Shown in pieces: positions 448 to 44,282 of a stretch of DNA of 46,995 nucleotides (within the stretch, counting starts at the first letter, position 1; each line of letters begins with the position of its first letter). The position numbers and the translations under genes are program-made. Under the pieces are notes generated by a model. That model was not told the DNA's origin. It did not search any database and worked only from the letters and a program-made list of their open reading frames with translations. Origin of the DNA: Chloroflexota bacterium. Lineage in GTDB: Bacteria; Chloroflexota; Anaerolineae; Caldilineales; Caldilineaceae. Location of the stretch: the NCBI GenBank assembly GCA_024277175.1, contig JAJRVT010000201.1, positions 1 to 46,995 on the forward strand, given 5' to 3'.

Positions 448-622
448 GTTACGATTTACGATAGACCGTGAATTGGGTTGATTTTTACGAATTTCGCTTA
501 AAAATCGTAACTATTCAGCGGTTATCAGGGGAACGCGGATTAGCGCGGACGAGAGCAGATTTGCACGGATTTTTCCTGAAAAATCCGTGCAAATCCGTTT
601 GTATCAGCGAAAATCCGCGTTC
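448..622. promoter_or_regulatory. highly structured yceD-rpmF intergenic leader: 38-nt perfect palindrome (558-595) nested in 11-bp inverted repeat (531-541 / 612-622), plus a further 10-bp inverted repeat (448-457 / 503-512)
   Basis: gatttgcacggatttttc-ct-gaaaaatccgtgcaaatc; gaacgcggatt...aatccgcgttc; repeated AAATCCG words; AT-richer than flanks. Confidence 0.4.
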
Positions 623-2779: not shown

Positions 2780-3997
2780 TTATTCGTTCGGTAGAAAATA
2801 CGCAAAGACCTGATTCCCGACCATCAATCCCCGGCGGGTGAGGCGCACCCGATCGGCGTTCATTTCGATCAGGCCCCATTCCTGCAGCCGGATCAGTTCA
2901 TCCTCGAACGCTGCCGCCAACGTCACGGCATAGCGTTGTTGAAAGCGGGCAAAGGGGACGCCTTCCGTCACCAGACGCAACCCCAACATCATGGTTTCCC
3001 CCATACTCAGTCGCGGCCCAATCGTTTCGGTGAAGGCCGCCACCGATTGGCCGTCTGTGATCCGTTTAATGTAGTCCGCCACCGGTTTGCGATTGCCCCA
3101 CCGACGTTCTACAGGACCGTCATCCCCCTCCGCGATCAAATGGCTGTGTGCGCCAGGGCCGATGCCGAGATATCCCTGGTTGCGCCAGTAAATCAGATTG
3201 TGACGACAGGCGTAAGCTGGCGTCGCCGCCGCGTGCGTTCCCGCTGCGGGGTCGCCGGCGGTCATGCGGGCCCAGTTGGAGACTTCGTAATGGATATACC
3301 CCGCCTCACCTAACTCGTCCATGGCCAGTTCATACAGGTCGGCGGCCTCATCCTCATCGGGCTGGTCCACCCGGCCCACTTGAACCCAGTGATGAAGGGG
3401 CGTCTCCGGCTCGACGATCAGGCTGTACAGGCTCAGATGCTCGCTCTTCAGCGCCAGGGCCTTGCTCAGCGTATCCCGCCAGTGGGACGCAGGTTGATGG
3501 GGCAGGCCAAAAATAAGATCCAGGTTGATATTTTCAAAACCGGCGGCCCTTGCGCCGTCATAGGCCCGATAGACGTCGCCCACATCATGGATGCGGCCCA
3601 GAAAACCCAATTCGTCGGGCTGAAAGCTTTGGACGCCCATGCTCAGGCGATTGACGCCCAACCCGCGCAGCAACGCGAACTTATCCCGATCCACTGCGCC
3701 CGGGTTGGCCTCGCTGGAAAATTCGCACGTCGCGGAAAGGGTGAAGCAATCGTGCGCCTGCTGAACGATGCGGGTCAACTGGGCGGGGGTGAGAACGGTT
3801 GGCGTGCCGCCCCCCAGGAAAACCGTCTCCACCACGCGCCCGCTCAACGGCTCCCGCCACCGGGCCATCTCAGCGCAGATGGCGTCGACAGTGCGATCAT
3901 GCAGAGCGTCCAGCCCGGCGTAGGTGTTGAAATCGCAGTACGGGCATTTTTGCGCGCAAAATGGAATGTGAATGTAAAGCCCCAATGACGCAATCAC
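2780..3997 (-). CDS. hemW: radical SAM heme chaperone HemW (HemN-like, oxygen-independent coproporphyrinogen oxidase family)
   Basis: LYIHIPFCAQKCPYCDFNT CxxxCxxC radical-SAM motif at N-terminus; HemN C-terminal domain. Confidence 0.85.
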   Translation of the reverse strand: MIASLGLYIHIPFCAQKCPYCDFNTYAGLDALHDRTVDAICAEMARWREPLSGRVVETVFLGGGTPTVLTPAQLTRIVQQAHDCFTLSATCEFSSEANPGAVDRDKFALLRGLGVNRLSMGVQSFQPDELGFLGRIHDVGDVYRAYDGARAAGFENINLDLIFGLPHQPASHWRDTLSKALALKSEHLSLYSLIVEPETPLHHWVQVGRVDQPDEDEAADLYELAMDELGEAGYIHYEVSNWARMTAGDPAAGTHAAATPAYACRHNLIYWRNQGYLGIGPGAHSHLIAEGDDGPVERRWGNRKPVADYIKRITDGQSVAAFTETIGPRLSMGETMMLGLRLVTEGVPFARFQQRYAVTLAAAFEDELIRLQEWGLIEMNADRVRLTRRGLMVGNQVFAYFLPNE

Positions 3998-4092
3998 AAC
4001 GTTCTTCCTCTTCGACGCGGCTCTTCCCCCATCGTTGGCGGACGGGCGTTACGCCAAAGCCTGTTCGATGGGGGGAATGGCGCCTACGGAGG

Positions 4093-5125: not shown

Positions 5126-6142
5126 GTGCAAAACATTTTGAACCCGGGGGACGTCCTCCGCAATCGATATGAAGTGATCGAACTGGTGGGCCAGGGCGGC
5201 ATGGGCGCGGTCTACAAAACCCGGGACCAGCGGCTCGATGGACGCATCTGTGCGGTGAAGGAAATCATCCCCTTCGCCTCATCCGGCGCCACCAACGATC
5301 AGGAACTGACCCAAATCGCCGATCAGTTCCACATGGAAGCCAGCATTTTAGCCCGGTTGGATCATCCCAATCTGCCCAAAGTGTCCGATTATTTTTCCCT
5401 CGGTCGGCGTGAATATCTGGTGATGGATTATGTTGAGGGGCGCGACCTGCAGGAGATCCTGCAACAGGCGCGACGTCGCGACGAATTCCTGGATGAGCGC
5501 CAAGTGCTGGCCTGGGCCGAACAACTACTGGACGCCTTAGAATACCTTCATGACCAGGATCCGCCGGTGGTGCATCGGGATATCAAACCCAGTAACATTA
5601 AGATTACCCCACGCGGGAACATCAAACTGGTCGATTTCGGTCTGGTTAAGATATTAGAACCTGATGATAGCCGTACGGTCACCGTTGTGCAAGGCCGCGG
5701 CACAGTGGCTTACACGCCGCTGGAGCAATATGGCGGCGACACCGGCTTCACCGACGCTCGCTCCGATATCTACAGCTTCGGCGCCACCCTCTACCACCTG
5801 CTCTCCGGTGAGTTGCCGGTGGACGCCAAGGAGCGCTTTTTACGCCCCGGTTGCCTGCCTCCCATCAGCGACTTCAACCCTGCGGTCTCCGATCAGGTCG
5901 AACGAGCCATTTTCCAGGCCCTCTCCATGCACCCCAATGAACGGCCCGCCAATGTGCGCGAGATGCGCATGCTGCTCACCGGCGCGGCCAGCCCCATGAG
6001 TCAACGGATTCGCGCCCAATCCCTGGGCGTCCCCGCTCCCCCCTCTCCCCAAAGCTGGGGGGCCATCCTGCGCCGCAACGGTGCGCTCATCGCCGCCGCC
6101 CTGACGCTGCTCGCCATCGCCGTCCTGGTGAGCATTTTCTAA
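5126..6142 (+). CDS. Hanks-type serine/threonine protein kinase with C-terminal transmembrane anchor
   Basis: [10 protein letters not shown] glycine loop, AVK lysine, HRDIKPSNI catalytic loop, DFGL, TPLEQ activation segment; hydrophobic C-terminal helix. Confidence 0.85.
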
Positions 6143-6153
6143 CCTGACTACGC

Positions 6154-14321: not shown

Positions 14322-14324
14322 AAA

Positions 14325-14409
14325 GGAGATTGAGGATTGAGGAGATTGGGTAGATATTTCTGACGCTCCATGCGTCCAGTCTCCAATCTCTCAATCTCTT
14401 ACCCAATCC
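14325..14409. repeat. imperfect palindromic repeat element built from GAGATTG units (family A, copy 1)
   Basis: ggagattgaggattgaggagattgggta ... tctccaatctctcaatctcttacccaatcc; between convergent ATP-grasp and htpG genes. Confidence 0.6.
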
Positions 14410-17036: not shown

Positions 17037-17054
17037 GGGGTCTCCTGAATGAAA

Positions 17055-17104
17055 CGTGAGATTGAAGATTCGGGTCATGTAATCTCCTAATCTCCAATCT
17101 CACG
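17055..17104. repeat. palindromic GAGATTG-unit element (family A, copy 2)
   Basis: cgtgagattgaagatt ... aatctcctaatctccaatctcacg; in leader of truncated-hemoglobin gene. Confidence 0.6.
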
Positions 17105-17220
17105 CTTTAGGCTACTTCAAGAAAATAAATACACGTCATATCCCCGGCACTTTCCAGTCGCACTCTGGTCAGCGCCAAACTCGTGACAAGTGCCGGGGAC
17201 GTTAATTCCCAGGAAGGGCC

Positions 17221-19116: not shown

Positions 19117-19548
19117 ATGGGCGTGGTTCATCGTTTCCAGGGCGACGACGGAGAATGGGACTGGGCAGGCGTCTCCTGCACCGATCTGCAACCCGGCATC
19201 ACCGCCCGACGCTTCATCAGCCGGCAGGACGGGTCGAACAACCTGGAGTTGCGCTATTTCGAGATCGAACCGGGCGCGCGCAGCAACCATGAGCAGCACA
19301 ACTACGAGCACGCCGTCCTCATTCTGCGCGGTCGGGGGACCATTCTGCTGGGCGAAAAGGTTGTCCCTGTCCAATTTGGCGACGCCGTCTTTGTGGAAGC
19401 GGATGAGGTTCATCAGTTCCGCGCGGCCGAGGATGAGCCGCTGGGATTCCTCTGCACCGTGCTGGACAAAGAACTGCGGGTCAAGGTGCATGGGGAGCAG
19501 ACGCTGGTCATCTTCGATGATGAGATGGGCGAGGCGATGCAAGGCTAA
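19117..19548 (+). CDS. cupin-domain protein
   Basis: two-motif cupin pattern (HxxxHxxxxE...G...H: NHEQHNYEHAVLILRGRG ... VHQF). Confidence 0.65.
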   Translation: MGVVHRFQGDDGEWDWAGVSCTDLQPGITARRFISRQDGSNNLELRYFEIEPGARSNHEQHNYEHAVLILRGRGTILLGEKVVPVQFGDAVFVEADEVHQFRAAEDEPLGFLCTVLDKELRVKVHGEQTLVIFDDEMGEAMQG

Positions 19549-19573: not shown

Positions 19574-19654
19574 GACGCAGAGACGCCAAGGCACAGAGCT
19601 CGCAGAGAAAAGCAACAACTCTTTGCGTCCCTCTGCATCTCTGCGCCCTGACGT
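19574..19654. repeat. GCAGAGA-unit palindromic element (family C, copy 1)
   Basis: gacgcagagacgccaaggcacagagctcgcagagaaaagc // tctttgcgtccctctgcatctctgcgccctgacg; between convergent cupin and hsp20 genes. Confidence 0.6.
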
Positions 19655-19716
19655 TAAAAACGGCGGGTATCCAAAAAATGAGACCCCGGCTGAAAAAGCC
19701 GAGGCCTTGGAAAACA

Positions 19717-20184
19717 CTACTTCTTGTGCTCGATCTGCTTGCGGATCGCGATCTTCTTGGGTTTGACCTCTTCAGTCTTGGGCAGGTAGAGGGTCAGCAC
19801 GCCGTTCTCGTTGATGGCTTCCACCTTGTCGGCCTGGACCGTGGCCGGCAGCGCGATGCTGCGGGTGAAGCGCCCGAAACGGCGTTCGCGCAGGTGATAG
19901 TTCTTCTCTTCGATTTCCTCGTCCTGCTTCATCTCCCCCTTGATGGTCAGCACGTTGTCGGTCAGCGTGACCTCGATATCATCGGGATCGACGCCGGGCA
20001 GGGACGCCTTCACCGTGTATTTGTCATCGTCCTCGACCACGTCCAGCGCCAGGCTCCACTCGTCGATCATGGGGCGCTCCCACAGGACGCTCCGCTGCAT
20101 GAAGGGTTCCTCGAAGAGGCGATCCATGGTGTTGCGCAAAGCAGCCATCTCGCGGAAGGGATCCCAACGTACGATGCTTGTCAT
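19717..20184 (-). CDS. Hsp20/alpha-crystallin family small heat-shock protein
   Basis: MTSIVRWDPF...ACD core...IAIRK C-terminal; start at second Met with GGAGGAGG RBS. Confidence 0.85.
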   Translation of the reverse strand: MTSIVRWDPFREMAALRNTMDRLFEEPFMQRSVLWERPMIDEWSLALDVVEDDDKYTVKASLPGVDPDDIEVTLTDNVLTIKGEMKQDEEIEEKNYHLRERRFGRFTRSIALPATVQADKVEAINENGVLTLYLPKTEEVKPKKIAIRKQIEHKK

Positions 20185-20378
20185 TTTGCACCTCCTCATT
20201 CTATCTGAATTTTGCTAACGACAATCCATGTATACGCAACAGATATGAGTTGAACATCGGGGAAAACGGGGCGAGTCACACCCAGCCGCCGCTCCCTCAT
20301 CTCGATTATCACTATCGCGCAAAAATGTAAGATGGACGTAAGTCAAATATTAGCAAAATGTCAGAGAATAGAGGGAGG

Positions 20379-20456
20379 CAGGGTGAGGGGGTGACAAGAT
20401 GACAGGATGACAAGGTGACCGCACCCTGTCACCCCCTCATCTCGTCACCCTGTCAC
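20379..20456. repeat. GACAAGATGACAGG-unit palindromic element (family B, copy 1)
   Basis: cagggtgagggggtgacaagatgacaggatgacaaggtgacc // ccctgtcaccccctcatctcgtcaccctgtcac, directly after rny stop. Confidence 0.6.
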
Positions 20457-20459
20457 GCT

Positions 20460-22031
20460 CTACTTCGCGTACTCCACAGCCCGGGTCTCGCGCACGACGG
20501 TGACACGGATCTGGCCCGGGTACTGGAGGTTGTCTTCGATCTTGCTGGCGATGTCCTTACTCAGTTGGATGGCGGCCATGTCGTCCACCGCCCCCGGCTT
20601 GACCAGGACGCGAATCTCACGCCCGGCCTGGATGGCGTAGGTCTGCTCCACGCCTTGGAAGCTGTTGCCGATGGATTCCAGCTCGGTGACCCGCTTGATG
20701 TAGGTCTCCAGGCTTTCGCGGCGGGCGCCGGGCCGGGCCCCGCTGATGGCGTCAGCCGCGGCCACGATAACGGCCTCCACCGACTGGGGTTCGACTTCGC
20801 CGTGATGGCTGGCGATGCAGTTGACCACCGCGTCACTGACGCCATACCGTTTGGCGATCTCCGCGCCGACGATGGCGTGAGGGCCATCGATTTCATGGCT
20901 GACCGCCTTGCCCAGGTCGTGCAGCAGACCGCCGAGACGGGCGACGCGGACGTTGGCGTGCAGTTCGGCGGCGATGATGGCGGCCACGTGCGCGGTCTCG
21001 ACCGCGTGGTCGAGTTGATTCTGGCCATAGCTGGTGCGGAATTTGAGCCGCCCCAGCAGCTTGCGGATCTCCCGGTGCAGCCCCTGGGTATTGGTCTCGA
21101 TCATGGCCTGCTCGCCGGCGTCCATGATGATCTGATCGATTTCCTGGCGCGCCCGTTCCACCTCTTTCTCAATGCGGGTGGGATGGATGCGCCCGTCAGC
21201 CACCAGCTTGCTCAACGCCATGCGCGCGATCTCGCGCCGCACCGGGTCGAAGCTGCTGATGATGATAGCCTCGGGCGTGTCATCCACCACCAGGTCCACG
21301 CCGATGGCCTGTTCGATGGCGCGGATGTTGCGCCCTTGGCGTCCAATAATGCGGCCTTTCATCTCGTCTGAAGGCAGGGAGACGCTGCTCACCGCATATT
21401 CCGAAATGTGGTCGCTGGCCACCCGCTCGATGGCCAGGGCCACGATCTCCCTGGCGCGACGGTCGGCGTCCTCGGCCACCTCGGCTTCGACTTCGCGTAC
21501 AGTGCGAGCCATCTCCGCGCGCGAAGTTTTCTCCACTTCGGCCAACAGCACCGCACGCGCCTCCTCTTCGCTCATGCGGGCGATGCGCTGTATCTCCTGC
21601 ATATGTTTTTCTTCGGCCTGGGCCAACTGTTTATCCAGCTGATCGAGCCGGCTGGCCCGTTGATTGAGTTTACGCTCTCGAGTCTCGATCTTCTCCAGCT
21701 TGCGTTCAGCTGAATCGAGCCTGTTTTGCAGCCGGTCCTCAATCCGATCCAGTTCCTTACGTCGTTTCTCCTGCTCTATATCCATTTCATTGCGAAGACG
21801 AACAGCCTCTTCCTTCGCGGCCAACAGTTGCTGCTTGGCCTGCGTATCGGCGTCGGCCAGGATGCGACTTGCTTCGTCCAACGCATCCTGCCGCAGCTTG
21901 CTTTGGCGGTCTTGTTCGATCTCTATGCCAGACCGGCGGCCACGCTGAAAAGCGAAGTAACCGGCGGCGGCGGCGGCGAGCAATGAAAATAGGATAATCA
22001 GAACAATCGTCAGTAAAATGCCGGTGTCCAT
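20460..22031 (-). CDS. rny: ribonuclease Y
   Basis: N-terminal TM helix, long coiled coil, KH domain (IGRQGRNIRAIE), HD domain (HDLGK...HH). Confidence 0.9.
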   Translation of the reverse strand: MDTGILLTIVLIILFSLLAAAAAGYFAFQRGRRSGIEIEQDRQSKLRQDALDEASRILADADTQAKQQLLAAKEEAVRLRNEMDIEQEKRRKELDRIEDRLQNRLDSAERKLEKIETRERKLNQRASRLDQLDKQLAQAEEKHMQEIQRIARMSEEEARAVLLAEVEKTSRAEMARTVREVEAEVAEDADRRAREIVALAIERVASDHISEYAVSSVSLPSDEMKGRIIGRQGRNIRAIEQAIGVDLVVDDTPEAIIISSFDPVRREIARMALSKLVADGRIHPTRIEKEVERARQEIDQIIMDAGEQAMIETNTQGLHREIRKLLGRLKFRTSYGQNQLDHAVETAHVAAIIAAELHANVRVARLGGLLHDLGKAVSHEIDGPHAIVGAEIAKRYGVSDAVVNCIASHHGEVEPQSVEAVIVAAADAISGARPGARRESLETYIKRVTELESIGNSFQGVEQTYAIQAGREIRVLVKPGAVDDMAAIQLSKDIASKIEDNLQYPGQIRVTVVRETRAVEYAK

Positions 22032-22073: not shown

Positions 22074-22105
22074 ATAGAAAAAGCGCTGTAGCCAGGCTAC
22101 AGCGC
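22074..22105 (-). terminator. intrinsic terminator (9-bp GC stem + T-tract on minus strand) downstream of recA
   Basis: minus-strand gcgctgtag-cctgg-ctacagcgc followed by TTTTTCT. Confidence 0.6.
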
Positions 22106-22257
22106 AACGGTGACAAACAAATCAACGTCATGGCCGGGCGCGGCCATAACAGGAATTTGGCTTTTAACAGAGCAATGCAATGTCTTAAAACGCAGTCCGC
22201 CCTCGATTCGCGTCTATCGAATCGCTCTCGAGGAAAGGCTATACCCTTGATGGATGG

Positions 22258-25114: not shown

Positions 25115-26053
25115 CCTGGATTTTCCCTCATTGACGGAGACGTCAGCGGGCGAAACGGGGTCGGCTGCAGGCTCACCGCGACGCGACGTTGAACCGGCCC
25201 TCGGCGGAGCTATCCACTCTGACTGGTGGTCGGAAACGTCCACGACTGTAGCCGCAGGCATGGGCGCGCGCTGGAATTGACGCCGGTCTTCATGAGGGAA
25301 ATCGAAATCAACAGCCTGATAGTCGAGCAGAGAATCGGCGCTATGGCGGCGTGATGAGGCGGAATGAGATTTCAAGGTCGGTCCCCCAAAAAATATCTGA
25401 TCGAATGAATAGATAATGTCGCACTCGAAACAATACCACGGACTGCCGGAACAATTGTGAAAAAATAATGAATCGTCCCGTAAATTTCACTCTGTTTTGG
25501 CGCCTGTTTCAGGGACGCAAAACCCCACCGCGCGCGATGAGTCGCCCACACAGGCCCAAAAGTATGATCCGCAGTTGTTTCGTTTATTAGACCGAACCAA
25601 ACCCGTTAAAGTTTGCCCGGCCGAGGGGTGATACGCGCTACAACATCGGGTTCGCTGTTGCTGCTGGACACCCCATTACTTCCGTCAGAAGATGGGCGCC
25701 CAGTTGCGAGGCGATGAATTTGAAGCGATGAATTTGTATTGGACAGTCTACCAGATTCGAGCCAAGATCGCAATCCGTTTCATGTGAAATTTTGGACGAA
25801 TTCCTTTAACACCACCTGTTTTATTGTCAACTGATCGGCATTGAACATTTGTCCTACGCGAGATATGGCGCGCTTCTGCCGACGATCCACAAAATGGAAG
25901 ACAGCGCCAATATTGGTCAGCATCATAACTTTAAGGTTGAATCGAGCGCTGTCCAGCGACCGCTAACGCAACCTTACCCTTGCCTGACGCCTCTTCCGAG
26001 TTACCCCCAGTCGCCCCCAGGTAATCCCCAGAGTTATCCCCGAAGTGGGCGAG

Positions 26054-31489: not shown

Positions 31490-31595
31490 GTGACAAGATG
31501 ACAGGATGACCGTATGACAAGATGAGGGGATGACAAGATGACAGGGTGACCGTATGATGAGCGCCTTGTCATCCTGTCACCTTGTCATCTTGTCA
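31490..31595. repeat. GACAAGATGACAGG-unit tandem + inverted repeat element (family B, copy 2)
   Basis: two direct copies of tgacaagatgacagg(a/g)tgaccgtatga followed by inverted ttgtcatcctgtcaccttgtcatcttgtca. Confidence 0.65.
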
Positions 31596-32759
31596 GATTT
31601 TCGGAACCAACCTCGCCAGCCGCTCCACTGTCCGCTCCAACGAGTCCATGTCCGTGGCGATGCTGAAACGCACGTGGCCTTCGCCGGCCTGACCGAAGGC
31701 CACGCCGGGCGTGGTCGCGATCAGGGCTTCCTCCAGCAGTATCCGAGAGAGGGTCAGGCTGTCCTTGTCGGTGGCCGTGAACCGGGGGAAGACGTAGAAT
31801 GCGCCCTGGATGGGCGCGCATTCGAGGCCGGGGATCTCTTCCAGCGCGTCGAGCATGAAGCGCCGACGGGCGGTGTAGGCGGCCACCATCTCGCGCACGC
31901 AATCCTGGGACCCGTTGAGCGCGACCGCGCCGGCCGTCATCGCGAAGCTGGCCGCGGAGGTGACGCTCTGGGTCTGGAGGGTGCGCGCCAGCTTGACCAC
32001 GGACGCGGGGCCGGCCAGCCAACCGAGACGCCAGCCGGTCATGGCATAGGCCTTGCTGAAGCCGTTGACGATGATAGTGCGTTCGGCCATGCCCGATCGC
32101 GCGGCCAGGCCGTGGTGGACCGCACCATCGTAGAGAATGTGTTCGTAGATCTCGTCGCTGAGCACGTAGAGGTCGTGGGCCGCGGCCACCAGGGCGATGG
32201 CGTCCAGCTCATCCAGGGTCAGCACCCGGCCGGTGGGATTGTTGGGGCTGTTGACCATGATCAGGCGCGTGCGCGGGCTGACATGGGCCTCCAACAGGTC
32301 AGCGGTAACGCGGAAATTGTCCTCGCTGGGCAGGGCGACGCGCACGGGAACGGCCCGTTGCAGCGCCACCATGGGCCCGTAGCTCACCCAGGACGGGTCC
32401 AGCACCAGCACCTCATCGCCAGGGTTGAGGGTCACGGCCAGGGTGGCATAGATAGCCCACTTCGCGCCCGGCGTGACCATGATCTGCTCCCGCGTGACAT
32501 GGACGTCGTTCTCCCGTTCCAGCTTGGCGACGATGGCGTCGAGCAGAGCCGGGGAGCCGTGGGAGGGGGGATAGTGGGTGTCGCCGGCGAGCATGGCCTG
32601 GTGCGCAGCCTCGATGATATGCGCCGGCGTGTTGAAGTCCGGCTCGCCGCCGGCCAGGTTGATCACGTCCAGGCCGGCAGCCTTCATCTCCCGGCCCTTC
32701 TGCATCATCATGGCCGTGACTGAGGCGGGGATAGAGGTGATGAGTTCAGAAAGTTGCAT
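31593..32759 (-). CDS. class I/II pyridoxal-phosphate aminotransferase (AspC-family)
   Basis: aminotransferase fold with conserved Lys region (FSKAYAMTGWRLGW); start set at MQLSEL because upstream codons are a palindromic repeat. Confidence 0.8.
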   Translation of the reverse strand: MQLSELITSIPASVTAMMMQKGREMKAAGLDVINLAGGEPDFNTPAHIIEAAHQAMLAGDTHYPPSHGSPALLDAIVAKLERENDVHVTREQIMVTPGAKWAIYATLAVTLNPGDEVLVLDPSWVSYGPMVALQRAVPVRVALPSEDNFRVTADLLEAHVSPRTRLIMVNSPNNPTGRVLTLDELDAIALVAAAHDLYVLSDEIYEHILYDGAVHHGLAARSGMAERTIIVNGFSKAYAMTGWRLGWLAGPASVVKLARTLQTQSVTSAASFAMTAGAVALNGSQDCVREMVAAYTARRRFMLDALEEIPGLECAPIQGAFYVFPRFTATDKDSLTLSRILLEEALIATTPGVAFGQAGEGHVRFSIATDMDSLERTVERLARLVPKI

Positions 32760-32784
32760 GGTTATTTTCCAGAATACCAGAATG

Positions 32785-32878
32785 TTTGACGCAGAGTCGC
32801 GGAGACGCAAAGGGACGCAGAGAGAAATTCAAATCCCTCTTTGCGTTTCTCTGCGCCTCTGCGCCTTCGCGTCAAAGC
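32785..32878. repeat. GCAGAGA-unit palindromic element (family C, copy 2)
   Basis: tttgacgcagagtcgcggagacgcaaagggacgcagagagaaa // tttctctgcgcctctgcgccttcgcgtcaaa. Confidence 0.65.
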
Positions 32879-32881
32879 AGT

Positions 32882-34078
32882 TTACGATCCCAATACATCA
32901 GCGATGGCGTCGCAGAGATAGTCCATGTTCGCCGCCGTCAGGCCGGCCACGTTGATGCGACCGGAGCCGACAATGTAGATCGAGTGCTTGTCCCGCAGCG
33001 CAGCCACCTGCTCTGGCGTGAGACCGGAATAGGAGAACATGCCTCGCTGGCGGGCGATAAAGCTGAAATCCTGCTCCACTCCCTTTTCATTCAGAGTTTC
33101 CACCAGCAGATGACGCATGTCCCGGATGCGGTTGCGCATGGCCGTGACTTCGCCTTCCCACTGGGCGCGCAGGCCGGGATCGTTGAGCACTGTGCTGACG
33201 ATGAAACCGCCGTGGGCTGGGGGATTGGAGTAGTTGGCGCGAATGCGCTTCTTGATCTGGCTCAACACGGCCGCGGCTGTATCCGCATCCCGCGTGACCA
33301 TGGTGAGCGCGCCGACGCGCTCGTCGTAAAGGCCAAAGTTCTTGGAGTAGGAGCTGGCGATGATCATGTCCGCGCCCGATTCCGCCAGGAGGCGCAGGCC
33401 GGCTGCGTCCGCGTCCAACCCTTCGGCGAATCCTTGGTAGGCGAAGTCGAGTAGGGGCAGCAGGTTGCGCTCGCTGACCACCGCCGCCACCTGCGCCCAT
33501 TGCTCCGGCGACAGGTCCACGCCGGTGGGGTTGTGACAACAGGTGTGGAGAAGGAGGATGTCGCCCTCAGGAATGGTCTTCAGCGCGGCCAACATGCCTT
33601 CGAAGTCCACGCCCCGGGTTTCGGGATCAAAGTACGGATAGGCGGCCGTCTCCAGCCCGGCGGAGGTGAAGACATGGGGGTGATTGGGCCAGGTGGGCGT
33701 GCTCATCCAGAGGCGCTTGCCGGGCATCATGGCGGCGATGAAGTCGGCGGCCACCCGCAGCGCGCCGGTGCCGCCCGGGGTCTGAGCCGTGGCCGCGCGG
33801 CCGCTGACCACGATCTCGTAATCCGGGCCGAAAAGCATAGACTGAGTGGCGCTGATAAATTCGGGGATGCCATTGATGGGCAGGTAAGTCTTGCTGGCTT
33901 CGTTTTCCAGGAGGTAGGCCTCGGCCCGTTTGACTGAATCCAGAATAGGCGTGCGGCCGCTTTCATCTTTATAGACGCCAACGCCCAGGTTGATTTTGTT
34001 GGGGTTCGGGTCTTTTTTGAAGGCGTCGGTCAGGCCCAGAATGGAATCAGGCGGCGCGGCTTGAATGGTTTCGAACAT
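32882..34078 (-). CDS. aspC: aspartate/aromatic amino acid aminotransferase (AspC/TyrB subfamily Ia)
   Basis: close pattern match to E. coli AspC family: GVGVYKDESG, SKNFGLYDERVG, 398 aa. Confidence 0.85.
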   Translation of the reverse strand: MFETIQAAPPDSILGLTDAFKKDPNPNKINLGVGVYKDESGRTPILDSVKRAEAYLLENEASKTYLPINGIPEFISATQSMLFGPDYEIVVSGRAATAQTPGGTGALRVAADFIAAMMPGKRLWMSTPTWPNHPHVFTSAGLETAAYPYFDPETRGVDFEGMLAALKTIPEGDILLLHTCCHNPTGVDLSPEQWAQVAAVVSERNLLPLLDFAYQGFAEGLDADAAGLRLLAESGADMIIASSYSKNFGLYDERVGALTMVTRDADTAAAVLSQIKKRIRANYSNPPAHGGFIVSTVLNDPGLRAQWEGEVTAMRNRIRDMRHLLVETLNEKGVEQDFSFIARQRGMFSYSGLTPEQVAALRDKHSIYIVGSGRINVAGLTAANMDYLCDAIADVLGS

Positions 34079-34374
34079 GGTCTCCGTCCTCTCCTCATGG
34101 TGAAAAAATACGGTCGTCGCCTATGGATGACGAACATGGCGACTATTATAATCCATCTGGTGAAAATCCGCCCGATTGATCCCAGACCGTTCAGAGGTGT
34201 CACCTCGATATTTCGGGGCAGGGTGCGTTGCACTGCCCCAGAACAGGTTGGAGTATCCCGATGCACCCGGTCGGTGCGACGGACTCCCCCGGTTTGTTGA
34301 GCAGATACGTTCAGAGAAACAAATCGTTCCACGTTTTTATGCTATACTGGCCCGCAAACGAAAGCAAAGCCCGC

Positions 34375-35019
34375 ATGGAGATCCGCATGGAAACGAACCT
34401 AATGGATCAGACACAACCCGAGGACAAAGCCGCGGCCATGGAAGCCATCCGCCGCGAGATCGAGCAACTGACCGAGTCGCCCCTCTACGAATACCGGGTC
34501 GCCAACGGCTATCAGCCGGTGATCGGCGCGGGCAGCCTGGATGCGGACGTCGTCTTCATCGGCGAGGCCCCGGGCAAGCAGGAGGCGCTGACCGGCCAGC
34601 CCTTCGTGGGTGCGTCGGGCCGCATTCTGGATGAACTCCTGGCGAGCATCGGCCTGAGCCGCGAGGAGGTCTATATCACCAACGTGGTCAAGGACCGCCC
34701 GCCCAACAACCGGGATCCGCGGCCGGCCGAGATCGCGCTCTATTCGCCCTTCCTGGTGCGCCAACTCGCCATCATCCAGCCCCGGATCATCGCACCCCTG
34801 GGCCGTTTCGCCATGGATTTCACGCTCAATCTCTTCCACCTGCCCCAGGCCGGCGGCAAGATCAGCCAACTCCACGGCCAGCCCATTCCCGCGCGCACCA
34901 GCTACGGCGAGATCAAGATCGTTCCCCTCTACCACCCCGCGGTCGCGCTCTACCAACGCACGAAGCTTCAGACCTTGCAAGATGATTTCCGACGACTGAT
35001 TGAAGAGCAAGGGGTGTGA
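34375..35019 (+). CDS. uracil-DNA glycosylase family 4
   Basis: GEAPG...GQPFVGASG motif and HPA... C-terminal motif; track ORF starts at an upstream TTG but the conserved domain begins at MEIRMETN. Confidence 0.8.
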   Translation: MEIRMETNLMDQTQPEDKAAAMEAIRREIEQLTESPLYEYRVANGYQPVIGAGSLDADVVFIGEAPGKQEALTGQPFVGASGRILDELLASIGLSREEVYITNVVKDRPPNNRDPRPAEIALYSPFLVRQLAIIQPRIIAPLGRFAMDFTLNLFHLPQAGGKISQLHGQPIPARTSYGEIKIVPLYHPAVALYQRTKLQTLQDDFRRLIEEQGV

Positions 35020-35114
35020 CGCAGAGGCGCAAAGTCGCAGAGGAACGCAGAGAAAGGCGCTTCTTCTAACATTGTAGTTCTCTGCGCCCCTTTGCGCCTC
35101 CGCGTCTCTGCGTC
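35015..35114. repeat. GCAGAGA-unit palindromic element (family C, copy 3)
   Basis: gtgacgcagaggcgcaaagtcgcagaggaacgcagagaaagg // gttctctgcgcccctttgcgcctccgcgtctctgcgtc; between convergent UDG and selenoprotein genes. Confidence 0.65.
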
Positions 35115-35128
35115 GAAGCATTTTCCCG

Positions 35129-35830
35129 CTACCCGAACGCGGCCCGGAACTCACTTACGGCCTTGGGACCGTTACGATCGAGGCCGGCGTAGAAGCCTTC
35201 CCGGTCCTGGGTGCGATAGTCCAGGCGCTCCACGTGGAAGGGGGCCAGGCGAGCGCCGCTGCGCCGTCGCCGCTTCACATCCAGAAAGTATTGAAGCGCG
35301 TTCTCCACGCTGGCGGCGTCGGTCCAGTCAGACTTGTAGACGGGGACGCCGGACTTGTTGAAGATCCACGTCATGTTGGGCATGGAACCGTAGGCCCGAT
35401 GGCAGGCGCCGTCCAGCGCGTCCACCAGGATGGACCGGGTGACGCCCAGTTTGTCGCGCAGGTCCCGGGCGTTGCTGAACTTCTGGGCCATGGAGGTGAG
35501 GCGGGGATAGATCTCGCCGGGATGGGCTTCGTGGGTGTAGAGGAAGACCGCGCCCACGCCCTGGTCACGGTAGCGGTCGGCGATTTCATTCATGGATGGC
35601 GCCGCCATCCCGCAGTATGGTCAGGTGAAGCTGCCGAACTCGACCACGGTGTAGGCGTGCCCGCGCAGGGTCTGGGCGAGGCTGGTTTCGCCGCCGTCCA
35701 GCCGCCAGAGGGGGAAGTCAGGGGTGCGCTCGCCCAGGGGCGGGCTTTCGTCGAAGCGCATCCAGGGCATGAACTTTTCCGGGACGAAGCTGTCGTAGTT
35801 GTAGGCGTTGAGCAGATCGGCGTCTGGCAT
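35129..35830 (-). CDS. iodothyronine-deiodinase-like thioredoxin-fold protein with in-frame TGA (candidate selenocysteine) at 35621-35623
   Basis: ORFs 35621..35830 and 35129..35608 are in the same frame, separated only by TGA+4 codons; joined protein reads ...YTVVEFGSFT-U-PYCG...VGAVFLYTHEAHPGE, matching deiodinase FGSxTUPxF...YIxEAH. Confidence 0.6.
35594..35610 (-). promoter_or_regulatory. small hairpin (7-bp stem, GGC loop) beginning 10 nt 3' of the in-frame UGA; candidate minimal bacterial SECIS
   Basis: minus-strand ggauggc-ggc-gccaucc; spacing from UGA similar to the ~11 nt reported for E. coli fdhF SECIS. Confidence 0.35.
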
Positions 35831-35981
35831 GGTTTCTCCTCAGCGTACAGGCTGGTGCAGAAAGTGCAAATAGATTTCTTGTACATAGTATGCGCTTTAG
35901 CGCGGTTGTTGGTTAGACTACGCTATCCTATGAACGGTAGATGACAATCATGCCTGAAAGAGCATTTTTACGCAACAGAGT

Positions 35982-36010
35982 TTGACATCCCCCATTCTCC
36001 GCACTATGCT
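35982..36010 (+). promoter_or_regulatory. sigma70-like promoter TTGACA-17-TATGCT upstream of M20 amidohydrolase gene
   Basis: TTGACA 35982-35987, 17-nt spacer, TATGCT 36005-36010; GAGGTGA RBS before ATG at 36062. Confidence 0.4.
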
Positions 36011-36061
36011 TACCCCATTCATCAAGCAATCGCACCACTCACACAACCATCCAACCATGAG

Positions 36062-37240
36062 GTGACAACCATGTTAGAAGAAGCCCAAGCGTTGGCCGAG
36101 CAACTGGTGGCCTGGCGGCGCGACATTCACATGCACCCTGAACTCTCCTTCCAGGAAAACCGGACCGCGCGGCTGGTGGCCGACGAACTGGAATCCATGG
36201 GGATCGAAGCTCAGACCGGCGTCGGCAAGACCGGCGTAGTCGGCTACCTGGGCGAAGGCGGCCCCGTTATCGCCATCCGCGGCGACATGGATGCGCTCCC
36301 CATCCAGGAGGACCACGACGTGCCCTACGCCTCCCGGACGCCCGGGGTCATGCACGCCTGTGGGCACGACGCGCACACGGCCATGCTCATGGGCGTGGCC
36401 CGCCTGCTCAGCCAGATGCCCGACCGCCCGCCGGGCCAGGTGCGCTTTCTCTTCCAGCCCTCGGAAGAGGCGTCCGACGACGAGAACAAGTCGGGCGCGG
36501 TGCGTATGATCGAGGACGACGCCCTGGAAGGCGTGGACGCGGTCATCGCCCTGCACGTGGACAGCACGACCGAAGCCGGCAAGATCATGCTGGAGGAAGG
36601 CTACGCCTCGGCCAACGAGGACTCCTTCACCATCCAACTGATGGGCGATGGCGGCCACGGGGCCATGCCTGACAAGGGCGTCGACCCTATCTTCATCCTG
36701 GCGCAGGTCATCAACGCCATCAACGGCATCCGCGCCCGACGGGTGGACCCGACCAAGGCCGCGGCCATCTCCATCGGCTCCATCCACGCCGGAGTCGCGT
36801 CCAACGTCATCCCCAGCGTGGTGACCATCACCGGCACCATGCGCAGCTTCGATGACGAGGTGCGGGCGCAGTTGAAGACGGAACTGGCCCGCATGCTGGA
36901 GGTGGCCCGCGCGCTGGGCGGCGACTTCAATCTGACGTTCAAGCAGGGATACCCGTCCATGTACAACGATCCCGAAGTCTGCGCGTTGATGCGGGAGACC
37001 ATCACCGATGTGCTGGGCGAAGACGCCTTGCTCCACGCCGAACCCATGATGGGCGCGGAGGATTTCAGCTATATGACCCGCAAAGCGCCGGGCGCCATGT
37101 TCATGCTGGGCGCCAAGTATGACGACGTCAGCCGGGGTCATCACACGCCCGTCTTCGACATCGACGAATCGGTGTTGCCCAAGGGCGCGGCTCTGCTGGC
37201 GGAGATGGCCTGCCGCCTGCTGCGCGAAAAAGCCTCATGA
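36062..37240 (+). CDS. M20D-family amidohydrolase (N-acyl-L-amino-acid amidohydrolase / hippurate hydrolase type)
   Basis: MHACGHDAHTAM metal-binding motif, dimerisation domain, 392 aa. Confidence 0.85.
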   Translation: MTTMLEEAQALAEQLVAWRRDIHMHPELSFQENRTARLVADELESMGIEAQTGVGKTGVVGYLGEGGPVIAIRGDMDALPIQEDHDVPYASRTPGVMHACGHDAHTAMLMGVARLLSQMPDRPPGQVRFLFQPSEEASDDENKSGAVRMIEDDALEGVDAVIALHVDSTTEAGKIMLEEGYASANEDSFTIQLMGDGGHGAMPDKGVDPIFILAQVINAINGIRARRVDPTKAAAISIGSIHAGVASNVIPSVVTITGTMRSFDDEVRAQLKTELARMLEVARALGGDFNLTFKQGYPSMYNDPEVCALMRETITDVLGEDALLHAEPMMGAEDFSYMTRKAPGAMFMLGAKYDDVSRGHHTPVFDIDESVLPKGAALLAEMACRLLREKAS

Positions 37241-38127
37241 ATCGAGGCGTCGTCTATGGCGTGACCGCATACGCAATGTGGGGCGTGCTTCCCATCTACT
37301 GGAAGGTGCTCCACAGCGTCCCGGCCATCCAGATTCTGGCCCACCGTATGGTCTGGTCACTGCTCTTCTGCCTGCTGCTGCTGACTATGACCCGTAATTG
37401 GGGCTGGCTGTCCGCGGCCCTGCGCGACCGACGGACCGTGTTCACTTTTCTGGGCGCGGCCGCGCTGCTCTCCGTCAACTGGTTCACCTACATCTGGGCC
37501 ATTAACGCCGGCTTCATCGTGGAGACCAGTCTGGGCTACTTCATCAACCCCCTGGTCAGCGTGTTGATCGGCGTCATCGTCCTCCATGAGCGGCTGCGTT
37601 CCTGGCAATGGACGGCCATCGGCTTGGCTTTTGGAGGCGTGCTCTACCTGACCGTGGCCTATGGCGCGCTGCCCTGGATCGCGCTCACCCTGGCCTTCAC
37701 TTTCGCTTTCTATGGTCTGCTCAAGAAACAGGTGCGGGTCGGTGCGGTGGAAAGCATGGCTGCGGAGACCGCGATCATGAGCGTCCCAGCGCTGCTCTTT
37801 CTGCTCTGGCTGGCCAGCCAGGGGCGAGGCGCGCTGGGCCATGGGAGCGTGGCGGTCAGCCTTCTCCTCGTCGGATCCGGCGCGGCCACTGCAATTCCGC
37901 TGATCTTCTTTGCAGCCGCGGCCCATCGCATCCCCCTGAGCCTCGTCGGCATTCTCCAATACCTCGCCCCCACCCTCCAGTTCCTGATCGGCGTCTTCAT
38001 TTACCACGAAGCCTTTGGCCGCACGCGCCTGATCGGCTTCAGCATCATCTGGGCGGCTCTCCTTATCTACACCGTGGAAGGCCTCCACCAGCGGCGGCGG
38101 TTGCACCAGGTTCCGGTGGAGGCGTGA
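37237..38127 (+). CDS. rarD: EamA-family transporter RarD
   Basis: 10-TM DMT protein with RarD-like N-terminus (GVVYGVTAYAMWGVLPIYWK); 4-nt overlap with upstream gene. Confidence 0.75.
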   Translation: MNRGVVYGVTAYAMWGVLPIYWKVLHSVPAIQILAHRMVWSLLFCLLLLTMTRNWGWLSAALRDRRTVFTFLGAAALLSVNWFTYIWAINAGFIVETSLGYFINPLVSVLIGVIVLHERLRSWQWTAIGLAFGGVLYLTVAYGALPWIALTLAFTFAFYGLLKKQVRVGAVESMAAETAIMSVPALLFLLWLASQGRGALGHGSVAVSLLLVGSGAATAIPLIFFAAAAHRIPLSLVGILQYLAPTLQFLIGVFIYHEAFGRTRLIGFSIIWAALLIYTVEGLHQRRRLHQVPVEA

Positions 38128-38260
38128 AGGCGTGAAACGTAAGATCGCCGCGAACTAAGTGACGCCGCGCCCCTTACGAGTCATGCTTCACGTTTCACGT
38201 CTTCGCGCCTCCACGTCTTCGCGCCTCCACGTCTTTACGTTCCATGTTTCATCTCCAATT
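38128..38260. repeat. palindromic/tandem repeat element (family D: gtgaaggcgtgaaacgtaag // cttacg...cacgtttcac plus 2.5 direct copies of cacgtcttcgcgcctc)
   Basis: direct 16-mer repeats at ~38196-38240 and flanking inverted arms immediately after rarD stop. Confidence 0.55.
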
Positions 38261-43973: not shown

Positions 43974-44282
43974 GTGACTTTTCCTCCTTTCTTTAGGATA
44001 TCCAACGGTTTGTGCAGGTGACCCGCACGGTCAAACGGAAAAAGAAAACGTCTTCACACCGGGGCGTGAAGACGTCGAAGTCAGAAGGCGAACGACAAAC
44101 CAACGCAGGGACTACGTCTCTGACGATGATTCATCTTGCCGTACTTGCTTCGGCAGGCCACAAGCGCAAGGCTCGTAATTAAGGTCGTACACCTGCTGTC
44201 TTCAGCGCGTTTGACATTGTTATGCAATTGAGGCCGCGCCCATGACAGGCGGCGCAACCTGTATAACCAAACTCAGATCTCG
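43974..44282 (-). ncRNA. probable rplJ (L10) leader / autoregulatory mRNA region
   Basis: 309-nt untranslated gap between rplA and rplJ in an otherwise tightly packed r-protein cluster; the L10(L12)4 leader is widespread in bacteria; structure not verified here. Confidence 0.35.

Follow-up and report, generated by a model that had tools for sequence, protein, structure and literature searches.

Extragenic tandem-octamer hairpins start just past stop codons in a Chloroflexota contig and recur in other bacterial phyla

Three related hairpins at gene ends

We analyzed a 46,995-nt contig (JAJRVT010000201.1 of assembly GCA_024277175.1) from a bacterium of the family Caldilineaceae (Chloroflexota), and we call this whole stretch the window. 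It carries three related imperfect palindromes (copies 1, 2, and 3), each of which starts 0-25 nt past a stop codon (Table 1). Copies 1 and 3 lie between convergent genes, and copy 2 lies between two co-directional aminotransferase cistrons. An earlier reading of this DNA, made from the sequence alone, had placed three copies with near-complementary arms at these sites. Their coordinates and arms were borne out when the sequence was read again, and Pfam supports the neighboring cupin, hsp20, aminotransferase, and uracil-DNA glycosylase (UDG) genes that the earlier reading had named.

Each arm consists of about four tandem units of 8-10 nt (RNCGCARAG). The left arm follows the scheme GACGCAGAG-N-CGCNNAG-N-CRCARAG-NN-CGCAGAGA (or, in an alternative notation by units, GACGCAGAG / NCGCNNAG / NCRCARAG / NNCGCAGAGA), and the right arm is its near complement. 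An inverted-repeat search found arm complementarity of 79% over 19 nt in copy 1 (19576-19594 vs. 19627-19645), 76% over 45 nt in copy 2 (32785-32829 vs. 32832-32876), and 81% over 37 nt in copy 3 (35018-35054 vs. 35078-35114). The heptamer CGCAGAG is nearly confined to these sites (7 of its 8 occurrences in 47 kb fall within the three copies), and a degenerate pattern for the arm, with up to 3 mismatches allowed, matched the window 10 times as compared to 0.28 expected. When folded as RNA, all three copies reach -31 to -58 kcal/mol on both strands (z = -4.2 to -7.4 relative to shuffles).

We also ran a cross-phylum profile, built from 80 arms of copies in other genomes, on the window. For copies 2 and 3, it matched both arms (E about 1e-7); for copy 1, it matched the left arm (E = 0.009). 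No fourth copy was found in the 47 kb. Because the profile matches only these sites, the window has exactly three copies, of which copy 1 is degenerate. The arms are common to all three copies and the loops are not, so the copies are not recent duplicates.

Two of the copies interfere with the annotation of their neighbors, as the earlier reading had noticed. The head of copy 3, TGACGC, supplies the stop codon of the UDG gene. A TTG start codon inside copy 2 adds 17 codons to the downstream aminotransferase, and the resulting open reading frame (ORF; 31593-32810, 405 aa) is an artefact of extending the frame. In practice, then, these elements extend ORF calls and supply stop codons.

Table 1. 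Features of the window that are discussed in the text. MFE is the minimum free energy of the RNA fold in kcal/mol; E is the E-value of the arm profile.
Feature	Coordinates	Strand	Description
Copy 1 (degenerate)	19574-19654		Left arm units GACGCAGAG ACGCCAAG GCACAGAG CTCGCAGAGAAAAG; right arm units CTCTTTGCGT CCCTCTGCAT CTCTGCGC CCTGACGT; MFE -31.4 (+ strand), -46.5 (- strand); left arm E 0.009
Copy 2	32785-32878		Four units per arm; MFE -54.8 / -54.3, z about -7.3; arms E 2e-7, 9e-7
Copy 3	35015-35114		Four units per arm, loop about 23-27 nt; MFE -58.2 / -58.4
Cupin-domain gene	19117-19548	+	PF07883; stop 25 nt before copy 1
hsp20 gene	19717-20199	-	PF00011; convergent with the cupin gene
Hairpin and T-tract, terminator-like	19681-19707	-	Between the hsp20 stop and copy 1
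Class I/II aminotransferase	32882-34078	-	PF00155; stop 4 nt from copy 2
Second class I/II aminotransferase	31593-32759	-	Pfam; ATG at 32759, 26 nt beyond copy 2
UDG family gene	34228-35019	+	PF03167; TGA stop is the TGA of copy 3's head
Conserved hypothetical protein (154-159 aa, Anaerolineae/Chloroflexi)	35129-35608	-	Stop 14 nt from copy 3
Other-word hairpin	531-622		GCGCGGAT, period 10
Other-word hairpin	14324-14399		GAGATTG
Other-word hairpin	17052-17107		GAGATTG
Other-word hairpin	20369-20462		GATGACAR
Other-word hairpin	31491-31602		GATGACAR
Other-word hairpin	38116-38240		GGCGTGAA
Hairpin and T-tract	22083-22105	-	Directly after recA
Hairpin and T-tract	22126-22151	-	Directly after recA
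dnaA	23582-25375	-	
Non-coding gap	25376-26053		678 nt, upstream of dnaA
Hairpin with T-rich tail	44047-44076	-	13-bp stem, between rplA and rplJ

Related elements in other genomes

We scanned contigs from one genome per species (596 Gb) with the pattern GACGCNNAGNCGCNNAGNCNCANAG and obtained at least 118 blocks. By our own arithmetic, 17 fixed bases would match about 70 times by chance in 596 Gb on two strands, so single matches prove little. A full hairpin was present in at least 62 blocks, and at least 77 elements remained after nested duplicates were removed. Among the matches listed, at least 11 genomes have two or more matches each, and the record titles point to Chloroflexota, Acidobacteriota, Planctomycetota, Verrucomicrobiota (including Akkermansia), Chlamydiota, Gemmatimonadota, Bacteroidota, Gamma- and Betaproteobacteria, Myxococcota, Desulfobacterota, Cyanobacteria, Synergistota, and others. 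Carriers include the cultured Planctomycetales ZRK34 (CP050848) and Thiohalophilus thiocyanatoxydans DSM 16326, and the complete genomes OZ253536, OZ252023, and OY970273. RNCGCARAG stretches or members of the family were also found in viral (phage) contigs. The earlier reading had supposed that the three sites belong to a dispersed family, and copies are indeed abundant in other genomes. (We give individual loci by labels such as L003.)

These elements share a grammar. The unit consensus is G[A>G]CGC[A>G][A/G]AG with 3-4 units per arm, and the units are usually spaced by 8 nt (293 cases; 9 nt in 21 cases and 10 nt in 19). The ends of the elements are TT[TC][GA]A|CGC ... GCG|T[CT][GA]AA, and the loops are of 6-160 nt (median 47). 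The arms are conserved across phyla and the loops only within a genome: whole elements with conserved loops are repeated four times in L003 and twice each in L033, L073, and L076. Elements can be denser than in the window (up to 4 in 8 kb vs. 3 in 47 kb), and at L013 (4478-4730), the RNCGCARAG hairpin is nested in outer heptamer arms, (AAGTCTC)n ... (TTGAGAC)n. A BLAST search of PLSDB plasmids with a perfect element gave no match, for which low-complexity masking is a possible cause. We call these extragenic hairpins, a widespread class that includes our three sites, tandem-word hairpins.

Several versions of the array sequence were not found in print in the searchable full-text literature, and keyword searches led to a sole precedent, the Geobacter metallireducens genome paper (Aklujkar et al. 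2009, PMC2700814). Its authors report sites that come in pairs, one on each strand and at a variable distance from each other. Every site has 3-5 tandem octa-, nona-, or heptanucleotide repeats, and there are three classes (24+21+8 pairs for classes 1-3). Their architecture is identical to that of our elements, and they are also intergenic and present in tens of copies. However, the words differ (GTTGCTYN, TCTCCGTS[Y], and MTYCTGA vs. CTYTGCGY / RNCGCARAG here), and the description covers one genome. The architecture had thus been noted before, in a paper that does not analyze the position relative to stop codons, the polarity, or the spread across phyla.

Conservation at orthologous gene ends

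The sole syntenic relative of the window is a metagenome contig, Ga0114931_10006827 (L119), which is 86-90% identical to the window over 32901-38154. The earlier reading had proposed to compare orthologous loci, and in L119 there is no empty site: copy 3 is at the same place, with compensatory changes in its arms. Specifically, CGCAGAG/CTCCGCG in the window corresponds to CGCAATG/CATTGCG in L119, so that 14 bp pair perfectly in a shifted register, and the L119 element folds at -46 kcal/mol (z = -6.2). Its left arm is one octamer shorter (three units, not four; an 8-nt indel), and its loop measures 13 nt instead of about 27 nt. The different-word hairpin at 38116-38240 is also conserved in L119, with compensatory A>G / T>C changes. 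(The 5.2 kb of L119 that we compared start within this hairpin, at about window position 38207, but L119 itself extends farther.) This comparison therefore suggests that the elements are old at their sites and that they change by octamer slippage, turnover of the loop, and compensation between arms. The L119 contig ends at the equivalent of window position 32901, 23 nt short of copy 2, which suggests that word repeats interrupt short-read assemblies; such elements may break metagenome assemblies more generally.

We tentatively favor the view that these elements are stem-loops like those of repetitive extragenic palindromic (REP) sequences, that they lie in 3' untranslated regions (UTRs) or between cistrons, and that they evolve in place. 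This view is quite possible, but it stops a little short of being probable. Under it, an element would persist at its site for a long time, gaining or losing whole octamers by slippage, and no recent transposition would be needed to explain where the elements are.

Alternatively, the elements could be non-autonomous mobile DNA that resembles miniature inverted-repeat transposable elements (MITEs) or REPINs. The arrays would be terminal inverted repeats that are bound by a transposase or recombinase, and the position past stop codons would merely reflect where insertions are tolerated. The arms with their conserved ends (TTYRA|CGC) do form terminal inverted repeats, as in MITEs, and the recurrence of whole elements with conserved loops, the genomes with two or more matches, and the members in viral contigs would fit mobility, as would the insertion sequence (IS) elements that lie at a fixed distance from sites of the same architecture in G. 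metallireducens (PMC2700814). On the other hand, no direct repeat that could be a target-site duplication was visible at the ends of the family members that we inspected, and where a genome has more than one copy, the copies are in several cases part of a larger local tandem duplication with common flanks. Copy 3 has kept its place over about 12% nucleotide divergence, the three window copies have no loop in common, and there is no transposase among the 35 window ORFs that we scanned against Pfam. Also, a period of 8 bp is short for repeated transposase binding sites. We consider it unlikely that these elements are mobile DNA.

More distant orthologues of the flanking genes speak for REP-like stem-loops. 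In L130, L131, L134, L135, and L323, the gene end has a canonical terminator with a hairpin and a T-tract; in L162, it has another word-hairpin, with CACRAAG units; and in L321 and L322, it has a long unrelated hairpin. (In L325, the next gene is just 2 nt away and there is no hairpin.) A strong hairpin is kept by position and not by sequence, and among the indirect arguments that the elements act in the transcript at the gene end, this is the best.

Position, polarity, and hairpins from other words

For the other genomes, we identified genes with a home-made caller that uses log-odds of amino-acid composition. When checked on the window, it recovered the Pfam-supported genes, except that it missed DUF3048 and preferred an antisense ORF to EamA. 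Among 56 classifiable elements in other genomes, 29 are in co-directional gaps, 22 are in convergent gaps, and 5 are in divergent gaps, while the lengths of intergenic regions predict 54%, 18%, and 28%, respectively (p = 3e-5, chi-square test). The elements favor convergent and co-directional gaps and avoid divergent ones. Where a side of an element faces the 3' end of a gene, the stop codon is often within 25 nt (37 of 80 sides). A stable hairpin shortly past a stop codon fits the position of a terminator. At copy 2, efficient termination is less plausible, since just 26 nt separate the end of the element from the next start codon.

The same architecture is built from other words as well. The window contains six such hairpins (Table 1), with arms of 3-8 tandem units of 7-10 nt, and all six lie just past stop codons with the purine-rich arm first. 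The blocks that we fetched from other genomes contain another 33 (34 with the TGACA hairpin of the window), and their words include AATGGTG, TGAGAAA, GATTGAA, AAGGATG, CACGGAAAA, and ATTGGCAG. The histogram of tandem-repeat periods has its peak at 8, within a range of 7-9 nt. In viral contigs, we counted 32 stretches of the family pattern, 13 of the reversed control, 83 of a TGACA pattern, and 19 of a GCGTGAA pattern, and several of the "control" matches are real arrays themselves. Given these counts, we rejected the idea that RNCGCARAG is a unique word; it is one favored word among many.

In the family, 40 of 40 members begin with the purine-rich arm, and the other-word hairpins show the same preference by 21:6 (p = 0.006). 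In the other-word hairpins, the entry arm also has a stop codon in all three frames more often than the exit arm (22/68 vs. 8/68, p = 0.007). If a word contains TGA, TAA, or TAG and is repeated with a period of 7 or 8 nt, then stops in all three frames are guaranteed.

Some purine arrays have no partner arm. Such solo arrays were found in the viral contigs L205 (4793-13352), L175, and L185-L191. Across all loci, those that lie downstream of a gene tend to be on its sense strand (50:21, p = 8e-4). In L205, 4 of the 5 arrays fill short gaps (about 41-58 nt) that run from a stop codon to the ATG of the next gene. We also saw head-to-tail arrays of different octamers with no hairpin partner (L180/L182 at about 6007-6150, L010 at 3931-4060, and L023 at 1694-1760), for example (GACGCAAA)5 (GGTACAAA)8 (CGAATTAA)n.

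These arrays raise the possibility that the tandem words bind a protein and that the hairpin is secondary. The partner could be a nucleoid protein or "global regulator" that binds DNA, or a protein with an OB fold that binds RNA or single-stranded DNA with a footprint of 6-8 nt, such as a cold-shock protein. The strand bias of the solo arrays, the short gaps in L205, the nearly universal polarity, and the period of 7-9 nt would be expected if a protein binds the array, and for the G. metallireducens sites, Aklujkar et al. proposed binding by IHF/HU, which was a guess at a "global regulator" (PMC2700814). Furthermore, the unit of the pyrimidine-rich arm, G[TC]CT[TC]TG, includes GTCTTTG, which is the in-vitro consensus of CspB from Bacillus subtilis (PMC1904285), although this is a resemblance to a single in-vitro consensus. 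The many unrelated words with the same architecture argue against one sequence-specific partner, and a period of 8 bp does not fit one face of the DNA helix. A protein-binding array is a rather unlikely explanation.

In one form of this idea, which we regard as a long shot, the array itself is the functional unit: words on the sense strand past the stop codon would be the landing site of a universal factor that binds single strands with a footprint of 6-8 nt, and binding to an arm would decide whether the hairpin forms. The best lead for such a factor would be the cold-shock-domain proteins, as suggested by the match between GTCTTTG and the CspB consensus. If this were true, the arrays would provide a condition-dependent switch, with no need for a U-tract, between termination or stabilization and read-through. 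Hundreds of gene ends would use it, across many phyla of bacteria and in their phages.

Pairing and the proposed role at gene ends

To see how the arms vary together, we took 40 elements from about 35 genomes and joined the outer three units of each arm with an artificial GAAA loop. Pairing is maintained in 90.4% of cells, as compared to 32-53% in slid controls, and in 12 of 28 pairs, both sides change. The covariation score is 0.227 (vs. 0.152±0.009; 0 of 500 shuffles scored as high). For example, G-C varies with A-U at the TTGAC/TTAAC end, and A-U varies with G-C at the variable purine. The spacer positions in the arms are frequently mismatched, and a stricter test, of the order of units within elements, was significant for the spacer only (85 vs. 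56.7).

Could the hairpins be a neutral by-product of mutation? Slippage and template switching at quasi-palindromes might build them wherever selection is weak, such as just past stop codons. This would account for the whole-unit indel between orthologous copies, for the frequent cases in which the units of one arm resemble each other more closely than one arm resembles the other (as in L001), for the many different words, and for the lack of an RNA-strand signal (see below). It would not account for the strong biases in orientation and polarity, nor for the recurrence of the same word and ends across phyla. Divergent gaps are at least as free of coding constraint, yet the elements are depleted from them, and at orthologous gene ends, other strong hairpins take the place of the elements. 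A neutral origin therefore seems very unlikely to us.

We propose instead that the elements act as REP-like stem-loops in the RNA. Each comprises two inverted arrays of 3-4 RNCGCARAG octamers, with the purine-rich arm first on either strand and a loop that is free to evolve. The element would be transcribed as part of the 3' UTR or the intercistronic RNA of the gene whose stop codon it abuts. The stem-loop would then be a barrier to 3'-to-5' exonucleases, so that it would fix the end of the upstream message and stabilize it, as a REP would, and it might also be a pause site or a partial terminator that works without a U-tract. Because the element is nearly a palindrome, it could serve both transcripts of a convergent pair. 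The sequence, architecture, position, spread across phyla, orthologous conservation with compensatory changes, and lack of a U-tract are observed, and from these we infer the transcription of the elements, their stabilizing or terminating activity, and the mechanism of slippage and correction.

Several observations weigh against this proposal. This genome uses canonical terminators, after hsp20 and after recA, and on the hsp20 side, copy 1 lies behind a canonical hairpin with a T-tract, so copy 1 is not the first hairpin of the hsp20 transcript. As the earlier reading had remarked for the three copies, the elements have no U-tract: across the family, a run of 8 nt with 5 or more T occurs in just 8 of the 154 flanks. 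(Copies 2 and 3 have no U-tract downstream, and copy 1 is followed on the minus strand by the weakly U-rich UUGUUUGUG.) The gene context in other genomes depends on our home-made ORF caller, and the covariation would be expected just as much from an inverted repeat that acts as DNA or from genome-specific variants of the word. Nor was there any preference for the RNA strand. For 36 elements, one sense strand could be defined. It gave the better fold in 23 of them and the worse fold in 12 (p = 0.11), and on this strand, G.U wobbles were about as frequent as A.C mismatches (41 vs. 35, p = 0.57). The absence of a strand signal is compatible with the use of both strands, with a role at the level of DNA, or with low statistical power. 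Finally, since solo arrays exist, the array and not the hairpin may be the functional unit.

Signals at gene ends are poorly understood outside of a few model bacteria. Many genes of Chloroflexota, Acidobacteriota, Planctomycetota, and Verrucomicrobiota lack recognizable intrinsic terminators. In at least ten phyla, we find hairpins with a fixed grammar (tandem octamers with the purine-rich arm first and TTYRA|CGC ends, which lack a U-tract and begin no farther than about 25 nt from a stop codon), and this class is a candidate for a widespread signal at 3' ends or between cistrons that had gone unrecognized.

Relationship to known elements

The earlier reading had likened the three copies to REP or BIME sequences. 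This holds for their behavior, as they are extragenic, past stop codons, and multi-copy. Like the REPs, BIMEs, and REPINs of Enterobacteria and Pseudomonas, they are imperfect palindromes that form long hairpins, that lie in 3' UTRs or at convergent or intercistronic sites, often within about 15-25 nt of a stop codon, and that may be barriers at the 3' end of mRNA (which is proposed for REPs and which we infer here). Membership in these families is not established. The heads are TT[TC][GA]A|CGC, rather than GTAG next to a single palindrome of 20-40 nt; an arm has 3-4 octamers in tandem where a REP has one unit; the word is common to many phyla, unlike REPs, each of which is confined to one genus or species; and no RAYT (Y1 transposase) was found among the 35 ORFs of the 47-kb contig that were scanned against Pfam. 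In 1987, Newbury et al. reportedly found that REP stem-loops stabilize the upstream mRNA, and Dar and Sorek are said to have found, in 2018, that Rho-terminated transcripts are trimmed back to stable stem-loops.

The earlier reading had offered intrinsic terminators without a U-tract as its other interpretation. Intrinsic terminators share with our elements a stable hairpin with G+C just past the stop codon, and canonical ones occupy the same place in some of the orthologous loci. Our elements differ in having no U-tract within 0-2 nt of the stem, in their stems of 30-45 nt with periodic mismatches, and in their loops of up to 160 nt. Membership in the REP/BIME families, the intrinsic terminators, or the MITEs is not established because features that define these groups are absent or were not seen here.

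The STRR arrays of heterocystous cyanobacteria are intergenic direct arrays of 7-nt words and are described from one phylum. The tandem 7-nt words between genes are a similarity, and a Nostoc locus (L106) has both an STRR-type array and a word-hairpin. The inverted pair that forms a hairpin, the octamer word, and the spread across phyla are features of our elements that are not known from STRR arrays.

In Rfam 15, no family matched the copies at the gathering score (the only match was to a tRNA), and in E-value mode, the only hits were sub-threshold ones to hairpin models of miRNA precursors. On the sequence alone, we also dismissed three other candidates, namely an integron attC site, a CRISPR array, and a coding repeat.

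Other features of the window

The window also includes genes for RNase Y, recA, dnaA, htpG, spoVS, and DUF3048, and a nusG-rplKAJL cluster. We considered whether this might be a genome without canonical terminators, and rejected this since hsp20 and recA carry hairpins with T-tracts (Table 1). Across the window, such sites are not enriched relative to shuffles.

The relatives of the 159-aa protein that is encoded next to copy 3 are from metagenome-assembled genomes of Anaerolineae/Chloroflexi. In relatives (L320-L325; the corresponding part of the window is 35590-35990), there is a conserved 69-aa ORF upstream of the gene, and some of them have an additional 83-aa ORF upstream as well as a GRDB (glycine reductase B-like) gene. 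The GRDB-like neighbor may be where the label of "selenoprotein", which the earlier reading had given to the 159-aa gene, came from.

The non-coding gap upstream of dnaA may be the replication origin. The hairpin with a T-rich tail between rplA and rplJ is where an attenuator of the L10-leader type would be expected, and its stem (GACGTCTTCACGC...) is similar to the word from which the hairpin at 38116-38240 is built.
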